Counted from the first letter of the stretch, positions 7,331-31,543 are shown. The stretch is 42,038 nucleotides of DNA from Candidatus Aenigmatarchaeota archaeon (GCA_039091335.1 JAWCME010000001.1:76024-118061); one strand, 5' to 3'. The notes: generated by a model not told the origin, from the sequence alone. A program made the numbers and translations.

Positions 7331-7744
7331 TTGGAAAAAACAACTTCAAGTATAAAGGACTTAAAGCCTGGTGGGTTTGTTTTAATAGAAGATGTTCCGT
7401 GTAGAGTTGAAAAAGTAGCTATTTCAACATCGGGTAAAGATTGAAAAAAACAATCGCCCAAACACGGAGCAGCAAAAGCTAGAGTTGATGCCATAGGTCT
7501 ATTTGATAATAGAAGGAGAAGCATAGTTAAGCCTGCTGATGAAACAGTAGAGGTTCCAATAATAATTAAAAAAAATGCACAAATTTTATCAGTAATCGGA
7601 GAAAAAGTTCAACTTATGGACCTAGAAGATTTTTCTGTTTTTGAGTTAGACATTCCAGAAGAAATGAAAGGAAGTTTGCAGGCTGGAAATGAAATACAAT
7701 ACTTTGAAGTAGTAGGAATTAAAACCATTAAACAAATTAAATAA
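7331..7744 (+). CDS. eif5a: Translation factor aIF5A, join(7331..7437,7462..7744), 129 aa after splicing
   Basis: TTG start; MEKTTSSIKDLKPGGFVLIEDVPCRVEKVAISTSGK/HGAAKARVDAIGLFD...QLMDLEDF. The hypusine motif is restored only after removing 24 nt that contain TGA. Missed by the ORF track. Confidence 0.93.
7438..7461 (+). other. 24-nt BHB mRNA intron in aIF5A
   Basis: Central helix GGGU/GCCC, AAA bulges, intron stem GAUUG/CAAUC with A7 loop. Cutting after nt 2 of each bulge gives GGT AA|A CAC. Confidence 0.9.
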
Positions 7745-7822
7745 TTTAAATTTCTCTTCTACTTACTTTTTACCAGGAAAAAAAGAATAAATGCTGTTTC
7801 TTTGCTATAAAAAAATTCAAGA

Positions 7823-7859
7823 ACTACCATAGGATGGTTGTTTATCAAGGTCAGGCAAC
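7823..7859 (-). other. 3' arm of pre-23S processing stem (BHB)
   Basis: GACCU UGAU AAA CAACCAUCCUAUGGUAGU pairs with the 5' arm at 11066-11102. Confidence 0.92.
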
Positions 7860-8024
7860 CTCAGGCTTTTAGTGGCAGCCAGCTGAGTACCTCGCTCGAA
7901 AGCTTGGTACTTACACTGCTGCTCTATCAAGCTTGTAGTCTACAAGGGCCTTTGTCGCTCTTCCGCTCCTTTCGGAGCAGTTGAGCGATTGGCTGTCTAT
8001 TTTTCCGGATGGCTTCGTCCTTAG

Positions 8025-8062
8025 TTAGACAAGTATAGCACTTAGTTTAAGTGCTATACTTT
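8025..8062 (-). other. 23S BHB intron, 38 nt, ~2754/2755
   Basis: Central helix AGGC/GUCU, bulges AUA and AAC, 14-bp intron stem; removal restores GCAUCUAAG. Confidence 0.9.
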
Positions 8063-8067
8063 ATGCC

Positions 8068-8098
8068 TTCCTGCTAATGGAGTTTAAACTCCATTAGT
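8068..8098 (-). other. 23S BHB intron, 31 nt, ~2749/2750
   Basis: Central helix CCUG/CAGG, bulges AAA and AAG, 9-bp stem; removal restores CCUGAAGGCAU. Confidence 0.9.
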
Positions 8099-8362
8099 TT
8101 CAGGACTTATCCATGATGGCGTGGCTGCCCGGCTGCAATCACAGCCGGTACACTAGAGGCCACGGATGGGTGTTCCTTTCGTACTCACCCATCCTTCCGG
8201 TCAGACAGCCAGCACCTCGAGTAGATAGCGACCGAACTGTCTCACGACGTTCTGAACCCAGCTAATGTTCCCCTTTAATCAGTGGACACCTGCACCCTTG
8301 GCTGCTACTGCACAGCCAGGAGGGGGAAAGCCGACAGCGACGCACCAACGCGCCGGGTCAAT

Positions 8363-8399
8363 TTATCTCGCTTCTGGGAATCGAAGACTCCATAAAGCT
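8363..8399 (-). other. 23S intron, 37 nt, ~2477/2478 (H89), relaxed BHB
   Basis: Removal restores GUCCACAUUGAC; central helix GUCC/AGAU has one mismatch. Confidence 0.8.
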
Positions 8400-8571
8400 G
8401 TGGACTTTCACCGGCCACGGGCCCATTATCCCCGAGGTAGCTTTTCTGATACCGCTCACTCCCATCAAGGGAAATGAACGTCTCGTTAGCCCATGCTTTC
8501 GCAGCTGGACTTCTCGCTTTGTGAAGTCCAGTCAGGCTGGCTTTTGCGCTTACACTCTACTCAGGATTTCT

Positions 8572-8657
8572 TTAGGGTGATAGAAGTTAATTCATTAGCT
8601 ACCTCACTTCTCATCTTAAATCAATCTGGAGCAGTATAATCATTCAACTTCTATCAT
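8572..8657 (-). other. 23S BHB intron, 86 nt, ~2306/2307 (H84), containing box C/D motifs
   Basis: Central helix AGGG/CCCU, 11-bp stem UGAUAGAAGUU/AACUUCUAUCA; removal restores GGGUCAGAAAUCC. Confidence 0.92.
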
Positions 8658-29020: not shown

Positions 29021-29098
29021 TTAATTGCCTCCATCTCTATCTAAATATATTATCGCTTTATTTTTAATAGTTTAGCTTAATTAAAGTCTTGCTTTATA

Positions 29099-29524
29099 CT
29101 ACCTCTTCGAGCGTTGTTTATGGCGTCTACTCCCACGTTTTGAAGCTCCACCGGCGTGTCTTGTTTCTGGCCTCCTTGTGTCAGAAATAAGCAAACTCCT
29201 ATCATAGCTTAAAATTTTTTGTTTTAATTCCTCACTCTGATAAAAATTTATTAAGGCATTTGTTATCGCAACTCTTATAGCATCTGTTTGTCCTGTAACA
29301 CCTCCTCCTTTCACATTTACCTTTATATCAACATTTTTTGCCAATTCTCCTGCAAGTAACAATGGTTCCTTTATTCTTAGCCTTGAAATTTCATTCCCCC
29401 ACAATTCAAAGGGAATAGAATTTATAGTAATTTTACCAGTTCCAGTTGATACTGTTGCTCTAGCTACTGCAAACTTTCTTTTTCCTACTGCCATTTCAAC
29501 TTTCTTTTTTTCCTTTTTTACCAT
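29099..29524 (-). CDS. rps9: 30S ribosomal protein uS9
   Basis: GKRKFAVARA, VKGGG..GQTDAIR, YDRSLL. Confidence 0.95.
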   Translation of the reverse strand: MVKKEKKKVEMAVGKRKFAVARATVSTGTGKITINSIPFELWGNEISRLRIKEPLLLAGELAKNVDIKVNVKGGGVTGQTDAIRVAITNALINFYQSEELKQKILSYDRSLLISDTRRPETRHAGGASKRGSRRHKQRSKR

Positions 29525-29940
29525 CTTTTCTTAGCCCCCAACTTTAAAGACAGTTCTCCTAATGTTATACTCCTACATTTTAACTTTGTTACATCTTTAG
29601 ATTCTGGCTTTTCAATTTTTTTATTTTTAAATTCCTCTGGAACACCGATAAAAACCCTTAGCCTCTTAAAGGCTTTTCTTCCTTTATCTTTGTCCCAAGG
29701 AAGCATCCCCCTAACCGTTCTTCTGAAAATACCGTCTGGTGTTTTTGGGAAAAACGGACCGTGTTTTGGATCTCCTCTATTAATTTTTTCAGAGTATTTT
29801 TTAACAATATATTTTGGGTCTCCAGAGATATGGGCCTTTTCTATATTAACAACAAAAATTTTTTCTCCTTTCAATAGTTGCTTCGCTATTTTTGAAGCAA
29901 TCCTCCCTAAAATTTGATTTTCTGCATCATAAATTATCAT
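29518..29940 (-). CDS. rpl13: 50S ribosomal protein uL13
   Basis: DAENQILGRIAS, GPFFPKTPDGIFRRTVRGMLP. Confidence 0.96.
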   Translation of the reverse strand: MIIYDAENQILGRIASKIAKQLLKGEKIFVVNIEKAHISGDPKYIVKKYSEKINRGDPKHGPFFPKTPDGIFRRTVRGMLPWDKDKGRKAFKRLRVFIGVPEEFKNKKIEKPESKDVTKLKCRSITLGELSLKLGAKKRW

Positions 29941-29944
29941 TAAA

Positions 29945-30307
29945 TCACGTTATGATTTTTATTCCACTCCCCTTTGGATTCCATTTTATTATTTCTTTAA
30001 TCTCAATGGCTTCGCAGTTTGCGTTTTTTATTTTTTCTTTTGCCCTAGAAGAAAATCTTAAAGCTGCAATTTTAAGTTTTTTTGTAATGTTTCCAGAAGA
30101 TAAGACGACTCCAGGAACAATCACAGTATCCCCTTCATTTGTATTTCTATTTATATCAGATAAATTAACAACAACTCTTTTCCTTCTAGGGTTTTCTAAT
30201 TTTTCTGCCACGGCCTTCCATATTGGAGCATTTAACTCAAAGGATTTTCTCTTCAAATCTTCTATCAATTCTTTTAAATATTTGTTTGTTGGCCCACTTT
30301 TCTTCAC
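29945..30307 (-). CDS. rpl18e: 50S ribosomal protein eL18
   Basis: PIWKAVAEKL.NPRR..VNLSDI, VPGVVLSSG. Confidence 0.95.
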   Translation of the reverse strand: MKKSGPTNKYLKELIEDLKRKSFELNAPIWKAVAEKLENPRRKRVVVNLSDINRNTNEGDTVIVPGVVLSSGNITKKLKIAALRFSSRAKEKIKNANCEAIEIKEIIKWNPKGSGIKIIT

Positions 30308-30354
30308 TCAAAACACCATAAAAAAGTATTTTCAATTTTAGATTTAAAAGGATA

Positions 30355-30442
30355 TGCGGCTGGCGGGATTTGAACCCGCGTTGCAAGCCCGGGAAGCTCG
30401 CGTCTTAACCATTCCAGTTTAGCATGGCTGGACCACAGCCGC
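30355..30442 (-). tRNA. tRNA-Gly(CCC) with intron at 17/17a (30412-30425)
   Basis: GCGG acceptor, A73; central helix CCAG/CUGG; spliced D loop AGCCUGGUUA. Confidence 0.92.
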
Positions 30443-30819
30443 TAATGTTTCTCAATTCTTATTTTCTCCCCATCTTTTATATTTTTCAAAAATCTAAAAT
30501 TGCTTTTTATTTTCCCAAAAACGTTTACAGGAGAGAAGGCAATTGGCTTTTCGTCCCTTGAAAATGGTGTTTTCCCAAAAAATATACAAATTGCCCTTCC
30601 TGGAGGCCAATAAGCTACATCTCCAACAGAAACAATTTTTTGTGAATTTTCCTCTTCTAAATTTATTCCACAATCAAAAAATACTTCTTCTCCCCATTTT
30701 TTCAAATTTCCTTCTATTGGCAAAGAATTATATATAGCTTCTGCTGTTCTAGGATTTTTTTCCGTTAATTCTGCTATCATTTCCTGTTTTTTAGTTATTA
30801 TTTTGATTTTTTTCTGCAT
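30442..30819 (-). CDS. Cyclophilin-like fold protein (TM1367/DUF369-like)
   Basis: WGEEVFF, VGDVAYWPPGRAICIFFGKTP, SPVNVFGK. Confidence 0.85.
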   Translation of the reverse strand: MQKKIKIITKKQEMIAELTEKNPRTAEAIYNSLPIEGNLKKWGEEVFFDCGINLEEENSQKIVSVGDVAYWPPGRAICIFFGKTPFSRDEKPIAFSPVNVFGKIKSNFRFLKNIKDGEKIRIEKH

Positions 30820-31244
30820 TTTTTAACCATAGATGCTATTTTTTCACCAAGTATTTTACATTCCCTTAGCTTGTTTTTATTTGGTTTTCTTTCTGAAATA
30901 ACAGATCCCACAACTTTTATACCATGACATTCCATTGCATCTTTTAGAGAATTCAAACATTTTTTTCCATCTTTCAAATATCCTGCAGAAGTAAAAACTC
31001 CCCCTATTTTACCTTCTAATTTTTTCCATACATCTATAGATTCATCTATAAATTTTTTCATTTTCCAAGACATCTGTCTAAAGTATGTTGGAGAGCCTAG
31101 GACGATTGCGTCTGCCTTTATCAAGTCTTCGTTTGTTGTTTCTTCAACACTTTTTAACTCCCCTCCCGAACCTTCTGCTATTGCCCTAGCCATCATTTCG
31201 GTGTTTCCTGTTTCACTATGATATACAATTAAAACTTTTTGCAT
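30798..31244 (-). CDS. Flavodoxin/WrbA-like protein
   Basis: YHSETGNTEMMA FMN loop, LGSPTY. Confidence 0.88.
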   Translation of the reverse strand: MQKVLIVYHSETGNTEMMARAIAEGSGGELKSVEETTNEDLIKADAIVLGSPTYFRQMSWKMKKFIDESIDVWKKLEGKIGGVFTSAGYLKDGKKCLNSLKDAMECHGIKVVGSVISERKPNKNKLRECKILGEKIASMVKKCRKKSK

Positions 31245-31444
31245 CTTCCACCCCCTTATATTTTTTAATTTTAAACATAAAGATTAACAAAGCTTTTATA
31301 GTTCAGACTTTTTTAAATTATGTTTCTTCTATAAGTAAAATGTAGTTTTTAACTTCTATGTAAACCATATCCACGCACAAATCAGGTTTATAGAATTGAT
31401 ATTTATAGAAAACAAACTCAGAAGAAGAAAGTCATCTATCACTA

Positions 31445-31543
31445 CGCTGGGGATGGGATTTGAACCCATACTCTCCTTTCGGAGAACCAGCTCTCGAGGT
31501 TCACCTTTATATCTGGCGCCTTACCTTGTTCGGCCACCCCAGC
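31445..31543 (-). tRNA. tRNA-Ser(CGA) with intron at 30/31 (31500-31512)
   Basis: Long variable arm, G73; central helix CGCC/GGUG, exon helix GG/CU. Confidence 0.92.

Follow-up and report, generated by a model that had tools for sequence, protein, structure and literature searches.

A…AA ends common to short bulge-helix-bulge introns in rRNA, tRNA and mRNA of an Aenigmatarchaeota genome: a probable signature of the splicing enzyme

The genome of Candidatus Aenigmatarchaeota archaeon (GCA_039091335.1; 0.57 Mb, 33% GC, an 87%-complete assembly) carries 18 short inserts of 12 to 97 nucleotides (nt) in a 42,038-nt stretch of its contig C1 (JAWCME010000001.1:76024-118061; this whole stretch is called the window here, and positions are counted from its first letter). 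One insert lies in the gene for the translation factor aIF5A, five in the 23S rRNA gene, four in the 16S rRNA gene and eight in five tRNA genes, namely two each in tRNA-Ala(UGC), tRNA(CAU) and tRNA-His(GUG) and one each in tRNA-Ser(CGA) and tRNA-Gly(CCC). Judged by sequence and predicted folding, all 18 are archaeal bulge-helix-bulge (BHB, tRNA-type) introns. Fifteen of them begin with A and 14 end in AA, a single one of the 18 being an mRNA intron; a first-pass annotation of this DNA had given the same two counts, which were reproduced exactly with the introns located blind to composition. We conclude, with a probability of roughly 0.6, that this A…AA pattern is the substrate-fitness signature of one splicing enzyme and not the scar of insertion.

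Composition-blind location of the introns and the A…AA pattern

All 18 inserts were re-derived without using base composition as a criterion. The 23S (7849-11076) and 16S (16652-18397) genes, which lie on the minus strand and exceed their Rfam models by about 250 nt each, were aligned to one relative of the same order (G022) whose rRNA has no inserts. This revealed four inserts in the 16S gene and four blocks in the 23S gene, the last of which resolved into a 31-nt and a 38-nt intron separated by a 5-nt exon, GGCAU. For the tRNA inserts, five genes were solved by hand, alongside a cloverleaf solver that scored stems and the central helix and never bulge composition; the mRNA insert was defined by restoration of the reading frame and by a Pfam match spanning the junction. 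Junctions were set by BHB geometry, with the cut after the second nt of each 3-nt bulge, and the coordinates and sequences of all introns were re-extracted and verified. The solver cannot fix registers in the D-loop or variable loop and fails on tRNA(CAU), so that three or four such junctions (tRNA-His intron 1, tRNA-Gly, tRNA(CAU) introns 1 and 2) have register alternatives; where both bulges read AAA, as in aIF5A, the register is set by geometry alone. The "introns" that the solver forced on class II Leu tRNAs were false and were discarded, and scans of the window for BHB structure alone returned more than 1000 hits per strand and, lacking homology or frame information, could not single out introns. 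ARAGORN and Rfam missed several tRNAs or bounded them wrongly, and the boundaries of tRNA-His were corrected by hand.

With two 3-nt bulges on opposite strands and removal between nt 2 and 3 of each, the spliced rRNA matches that of intron-less relatives, the spliced tRNAs form cloverleaves and the aIF5A frame is restored. The central 4-bp helix is complete in 16/18 inserts, with three of four pairs in 23S-2477 and two of four in intron 1 of tRNA(CAU). A complementarity between 4 nt near the intron end and the 4 exon nt preceding the 5' bulge, which had been listed as part of the signature, is therefore real but adds no feature, since the published definition of the BHB central helix is just this pairing of the 4 exon nt before the 5' bulge with the 4 intron nt before the 3' bulge. 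Both flanking helices are present in seven of the 18; most others have one, and a few mini-introns have only 1 bp per side. The inner helix is kept mostly by the mRNA and rRNA introns and the outer helix by the tRNA mini-introns (12-18 nt), and the BHB is relaxed, lacking the outer or the inner helix, in 11/18.

The signature persisted across the genome. An independent set of 23 introns from other contigs, comprising 20 tRNA introns from the blind solver and the re-derived introns of the aIF2-gamma, proteasome-alpha and rpoP genes, begins with A in 20 cases and ends in AA in 17, and position -2 is A in all 23. For the 41 introns together, the intron-side bulge positions are 85%, 98% and 78% A and the exon-side positions 46%, 29% and 44% A. 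The same ends were also seen in about 50 rRNA introns of relatives, at both shared and unshared sites. Could the pattern be a mere by-product of AT-rich composition, of the need for unpaired bases or of a register choice favouring A…AA? The low GC content of the genome, the ambiguous junctions in several loops and the AAA bulges that leave the register unfixed by the mature sequence all speak for such a reading. However, intron interiors are 33% A and 30% U (AA, 13.6%), yet U seldom occurs at the three bulge positions of the intron side, and against this interior composition the binomial P values for first-A and AA over all 41 introns are ~1e-11 and ~1e-19. Among 3219 decoy helices with 4/4 pairs at tRNA loci, 30% show first-A, 9% AA and 2.4% A…AA, in contrast to A…AA in 68% of real introns. 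Furthermore, bulge composition never entered the solver's score, and where a junction falls in a stem, an anticodon loop, rRNA or coding sequence, the mature sequence fixes it to the nucleotide. These controls largely refute the by-product reading, which we regard as highly improbable.

The comparison was extended to tRNA introns of three outgroups. The first nt is A in 8/11 introns of Methanomethyliaceae, 1/6 of Woesearchaeota and 11/16 of Micrarchaeota, and the last two are AA in 4/11, 5/6 and 5/16, respectively. When pooled, the outgroups show A at position -2 in 29/33, first-A in 20/33 and AA in 14/33 (this genome versus outgroups, Fisher p = 0.018 and 0.0045). Because the bias is present, though weaker, in all three outgroups, the pattern is not unique to this lineage: A…AA is a stronger form of a general BHB tendency and not a lineage-specific mark.

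The splicing enzymes and a possible basis of the adenine bias

The explanation that we favour treats the signature as two parts. The complementarity is the motif-defining central helix, and A…AA are the three intron-side bulge nt; these are unconstrained by the mature RNA and may thus drift to whatever the enzyme handles best. In EndA-RNA structures of ARMAN-2 and A. fulgidus, Arg and Trp hold the first bulged base in a cation-pi sandwich, the third lies stacked against the catalytic His, and both are adenine in the crystallised substrate (PMC12397907); such stacking would favour adenine. The enzyme acting on rRNA, tRNA and mRNA would be an alpha4-like EndA of one unit that carries the DPANN L3 loop, as found in the family. 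We infer that the preference of this enzyme causes the A bias, and likewise that cleavage and ligation take place at the predicted junctions, where EndA most likely cuts and RtcB rejoins.

As for the genes themselves, RtcB is present at C25:37091-37729, cut by the contig end, and EndA was not found in this 87%-complete assembly by a Pfam search or by tblastn with the proteins of 11 relatives; EndA is present in 30/30 relatives. The truncated RtcB and the missing EndA indicate that the splicing genes lie in or beside assembly gaps. In the family, EndA is a single one-unit protein of ~190 aa whose closest solved structure is the alpha4 enzyme of M. jannaschii, and no second (beta) subunit was found in family genomes even at E<=1. 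The family protein has a Lys-rich insert of 6 residues whose alignment to the loop of the N. equitans catalytic subunit needs no gaps. This insert matches the L3 loop, which is linked with broad specificity, and the L3 loop of DPANN EndA goes with heavy disruption of tRNA genes (Kaneta et al. 2018, PMC5829648). In other families of the order, EndA takes two-domain forms of ~400 aa, as in G022, the genome with intron-less rRNA; the long form only is found in G022, G024 and G025, and another genome of the order (G019, family f2) combines a one-unit EndA of 182 aa with an EndA-like gene of 395 aa and several domains. According to the literature, relaxed BHB forms require a broad-specificity EndA. 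The first-pass annotation had called for such an enzyme, a demand that fits the relaxed forms counted above and the L3 loop of the relatives' EndA, but only by way of the relatives. It is plausible that rRNA, tRNA and mRNA all depend on a single splicing system.

Several points weigh against the enzyme as the source of the pattern. The type of EndA is deduced from relatives, the gene being absent from this assembly, and the outgroups contribute a small sample of 33 introns, solved with the same in-house script. The structural papers describe stacking, not base selectivity. At the 3' site, by symmetry, the His-stacked base is exonic, and no contact has been described for position -1 (78% A). 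Moreover, the tRNA(CAU) insert at 19324-19338 has A…AA ends yet no BHB. A stronger version, in which the one-unit L3-loop EndA of this family has evolved a true base preference for A at intron positions +1, -2 and -1, is tentative and seems to us rather unlikely.

The introns of the window and of the rest of the genome

The features are as follows (coordinates; strand; description; central helix, exon/intron; 5'/3' bulges; rRNA positions are in E. coli numbering).

7438-7461; plus; aIF5A intron, 24 nt, in the hypusine Lys codon; GGGU/GCCC; AAA/AAA; no outer helix
8025-8062; minus; 23S intron, 38 nt, ~2754; AGGC/GUCU; AUA/AAC; from alignment to relatives and manual BHB fit
8063-8067; minus; 23S micro-exon GGCAU, 5 nt, between two introns; continuous in relatives as GAA(A/G)GCATCTAAGG
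8068-8098; minus; 23S intron, 31 nt, ~2749; CCUG/CAGG; AAA/AAG; inner helix 10 bp
8363-8399; minus; 23S intron, 37 nt, 2477/2478; imperfect central helix (3/4 pairs); ACA/AAA
8572-8657; minus; 23S intron, 86 nt, 2306/2307; AGGG/CCCU; UCA/AAA
9663-9679; minus; 23S intron, 17 nt, 1287/1288; UGAG/CUCA; AAA/AUU; this genome only
15453-15470; minus; tRNA-Ala(UGC) intron 2, 18 nt, position 45/46; GCGG/CUGC; AGA/AAG
15483-15495; minus; tRNA-Ala(UGC) intron 1, 13 nt, position 33/34; CGCU/GGCG; CUA/AAU
16700-16796; minus; 16S intron, 97 nt, between A1492 and A1493; GGGC/GCCU; UAA/AAA; no outer helix
16916-16959; minus; 16S intron, 44 nt, 1363/1364; UCAU/GUGG; CAU/AUU; departs from the signature
17415-17470; minus; 16S intron, 56 nt, 908/909; GGUG/CACC; AAA/UAA
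17582-17662; minus; 16S intron, 81 nt, 801/802; CCCG/CGGG; GUA/AAA
18787-18799; plus; tRNA-His(GUG) intron 1, 13 nt, D-loop 17/17a; GCAG/CUGU; GCU/AAU; register ambiguous
18831-18842; plus; tRNA-His(GUG) intron 2, 12 nt, position 45/46; CCCU/GGGG; AGA/AAA
19276-19310; minus; tRNA(CAU) intron 2, 35 nt, anticodon loop; best BHB UCAU/GUGA; AAU/AUC
19324-19338; minus; tRNA(CAU) insert 1, 15 nt, near 25/26; no acceptable BHB, 2/4 central pairs
30412-30425; minus; tRNA-Gly(CCC) intron, 14 nt, D-loop 17/17a; CCAG/CUGG; CCA/AAU; register ambiguous
31500-31512; minus; tRNA-Ser(CGA) intron, 13 nt, in anticodon stem 30/31; CGCC/GGUG; AGA/AAC

Many of these sites had been described as highly constrained, which holds for 16S 801, 908 and 1492/1493 and for the hypusine Lys codon. 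The aIF5A intron contains an in-frame TGA; its excision in silico restores ...STSGK|HGAAKA..., and a Pfam IF5A-like_N match of the spliced protein spans the junction. In relatives, of which the nearest public ones by aIF5A are Aenigmatarchaeota metagenome-assembled genomes, the aIF5A gene is 378 nt long and uninterrupted. Among the rRNA sites, 23S-2477 is filled in five relatives, with a perfect BHB in G016; 23S-2306 is filled in most family members, and 16S-1363 in eight relatives, mostly with CAA/AAU bulges. In the paired 23S introns (8025-8098), the downstream intron may build its central helix with the final nt of the upstream intron or, once that intron is gone, with an identical A of the exon; splicing could thus proceed in either order.

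For the tRNA genes, the junction of tRNA-Ala(UGC) intron 1 is fixed by the anticodon loop CUUGCAA, and removal of the tRNA-Ser(CGA) intron leaves a perfect CCAGC/GCUGG stem. The tRNA-His gene spans 18769-18869 and encodes a G-1 that pairs with C73; because of the D-loop intron, for which 14- and 16-nt alternatives score equally in the solver, Rfam (18785) and ARAGORN start this gene 16 nt late. In tRNA(CAU), a register 1 nt upstream for intron 2 would read A…AA, and the cloverleaf requires removal of insert 1. The AAAGCUU of this insert can pair with GAGCUUU of intron 2, and splicing may thus be ordered or use a joint structure.

Beyond the window, about four-fifths of the tRNA genes found in the genome are interrupted, and besides the nine rRNA introns there are at least five interrupted protein genes (aIF5A, aIF2-gamma, rpoP, proteasome alpha and a class-I aminoacyl-tRNA synthetase). 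Many of the tRNA introns are 10-16 nt long, have no inner helix and interrupt the anticodon stem on its 5' strand (28/29 to 33/34); with standard tRNA finders, only 25-31 genes are reported, several of them mis-assigned. The synthetase, of Tyr/Trp type, holds a 21-nt BHB intron (C1:30935-30955, minus strand, outside the window; GUGG/CCAC, bulges AAA/AAU) just before its HIGH-type motif (GFEPSG|IAHLG), and a Pfam tRNA-synt_1b match spans the junction. It emerged from a scan for structure and frame that ignored composition, in which real mRNA introns made up 3/15 candidates with the pattern versus 1/114 without it. When ten mRNA candidates were examined by frame merging, only the synthetase was convincing; a CBS-domain candidate was undecided, and the other eight, the FtsZ/Spt5 junction among them, were rejected as neighbouring genes or non-coding tails.

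Possible origins, known systems and significance

The first-pass annotation had attributed the signature to a lineage-wide gain process, for example reverse splicing plus reverse transcription. In this model, introns once excised would insert themselves by reverse splicing into abundant RNAs, whatever their class, and enter the genome by reverse transcription and recombination. The presence of introns in three RNA classes at accessible, functionally exposed sites is in line with this, as are the recurring positions in unrelated tRNAs and the patchy distribution, the aIF5A intron occurring in 2/26 genomes and 23S-1287 only here. However, the RVT_1 (PF00078) reverse transcriptase is absent from 29/31 genomes, this one included, and was found in two. 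Different sites share no 9-mers beyond low complexity, except for an intron common to two tRNA-Glu paralogues, and since the conserved part of each intron complements its own exon, a copy would not fit a new site. The A bias of the outgroups also speaks against this process. The aIF5A introns of this genome (G000) and of a relative of another genus (G015:C45, ~6630-6657; 28 nt, AAATTGAAG…CTTCAATTGCCTAA) are related in sequence and share the same phase of the hypusine codon, which fits a single origin and not recurrent gain. The intron is lacking in the 24 other relatives, and one origin with losses or transfer would fit. Taken together with the LAGLIDADG introns in the rRNA of relatives, these data do not bear out the gain process, which we judge improbable; insertion at the RNA level as such, though conceivable, finds no support in this evidence.

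Another possible origin concerns the rRNA introns, which may be decayed mobile introns: LAGLIDADG homing would have placed them in conserved rDNA sites, with later loss of the open reading frame (ORF), and the mini-introns of tRNA and mRNA would have arisen separately. Of the ORFs in relatives' long rRNA introns, six were tested and all gave LAGLIDADG_3 matches (E 8e-5 to 3e-16). These introns (L012, L014, L038, L041, L043, L044, L045) are 588-1064 nt long with the ORF on the rRNA strand, and the same sites in other genomes hold ORF-less introns of 35-127 nt. The site at 23S reference position 1212 holds 692 nt versus 70-86 nt, 23S 2677 holds 811 or 646 nt versus 97-127 nt, and 16S 1157 holds 588 nt versus 35 or 86 nt; locus 908 and pairs of adjacent introns are known from the homing introns of Thermoproteales (PMC4496867). 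That long and short introns occur at two LAGLIDADG sites suggests that at least some of the rRNA introns came by homing at the DNA level and then decayed. In this genome, no intron encodes a LAGLIDADG ORF, such ORFs being found only in the long introns of relatives; as had been noted, even the longest intron here, at 97 nt, is too short for a homing endonuclease. On the other hand, the ~20 relatives sampled have no endonuclease-bearing version at 16S 801, 1363 and 1492 or at 23S 1287, 2306, 2477 and 2749/2754, and decay says nothing about the 10-35-nt introns of tRNA and mRNA. We consider this origin a serious possibility, slightly short of even odds. It is compatible with the explanation by the splicing enzyme, since it concerns where the introns came from and not the signature, and common ends would reflect the shared enzyme.

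These introns are, on sequence grounds, members of the known archaeal BHB class processed by EndA and RtcB, from which those of this genome differ by their unusual shortness (10-24 nt being common) and density. Like the cbf5 pre-mRNA intron of Crenarchaeota (Watanabe 2002; Yokobori 2009, PMC2738675), the mRNA introns here place a BHB in coding sequence with a patchy phylogeny, but they are predicted from sequence, in other genes and in a DPANN lineage. The 16S introns of Thermoproteales (Jay and Inskeep 2015, PMC4496867) likewise occupy conserved sites, including 908, with neighbours only a few nt apart and with short hairpin introns of <50 nt among them; they include LAGLIDADG-bearing versions, as in Aenigmatarchaeota relatives, whereas all copies in this genome are ORF-less. 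The host here is an Aenigmatarchaeota archaeon, and the 13 loci of that study do not include sites 1363 and 1492/1493. The insert of the family EndA sits where N. equitans and ARMAN-2 carry L3 in alpha4-type DPANN enzymes (PMC5829648), but with the gene absent from this assembly its activity on these introns is a prediction. As far as the summary in PMC4090602 of the work on tRNA intron transposition in Thermoproteales (Fujishima 2010) goes, both systems have many non-canonical tRNA introns at recurrent positions; there, near-identical introns occur in unrelated tRNAs, whereas in this genome no sequence is common to the sites.

The finding opens no new mechanism, and the claim of a gain process gains no support from it. 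What it suggests is that the splicing enzyme exerts selection on the bulge bases of the intron side. If the family EndA did have a true base preference, a 4-bp exon-intron helix with adenine bulges would by itself suffice for cleavage, introns of 10-14 nt without an inner helix would be possible, and RNAs of every class, several essential mRNAs among them, could retain introns; hidden introns of DPANN genomes could in that case be predicted with the A…AA rule. In practice, the rule "exon N4-NN | A … N4'-AA | N" helps to place junctions and to recover introns of DPANN genomes that are overlooked by gene callers and tRNA finders.

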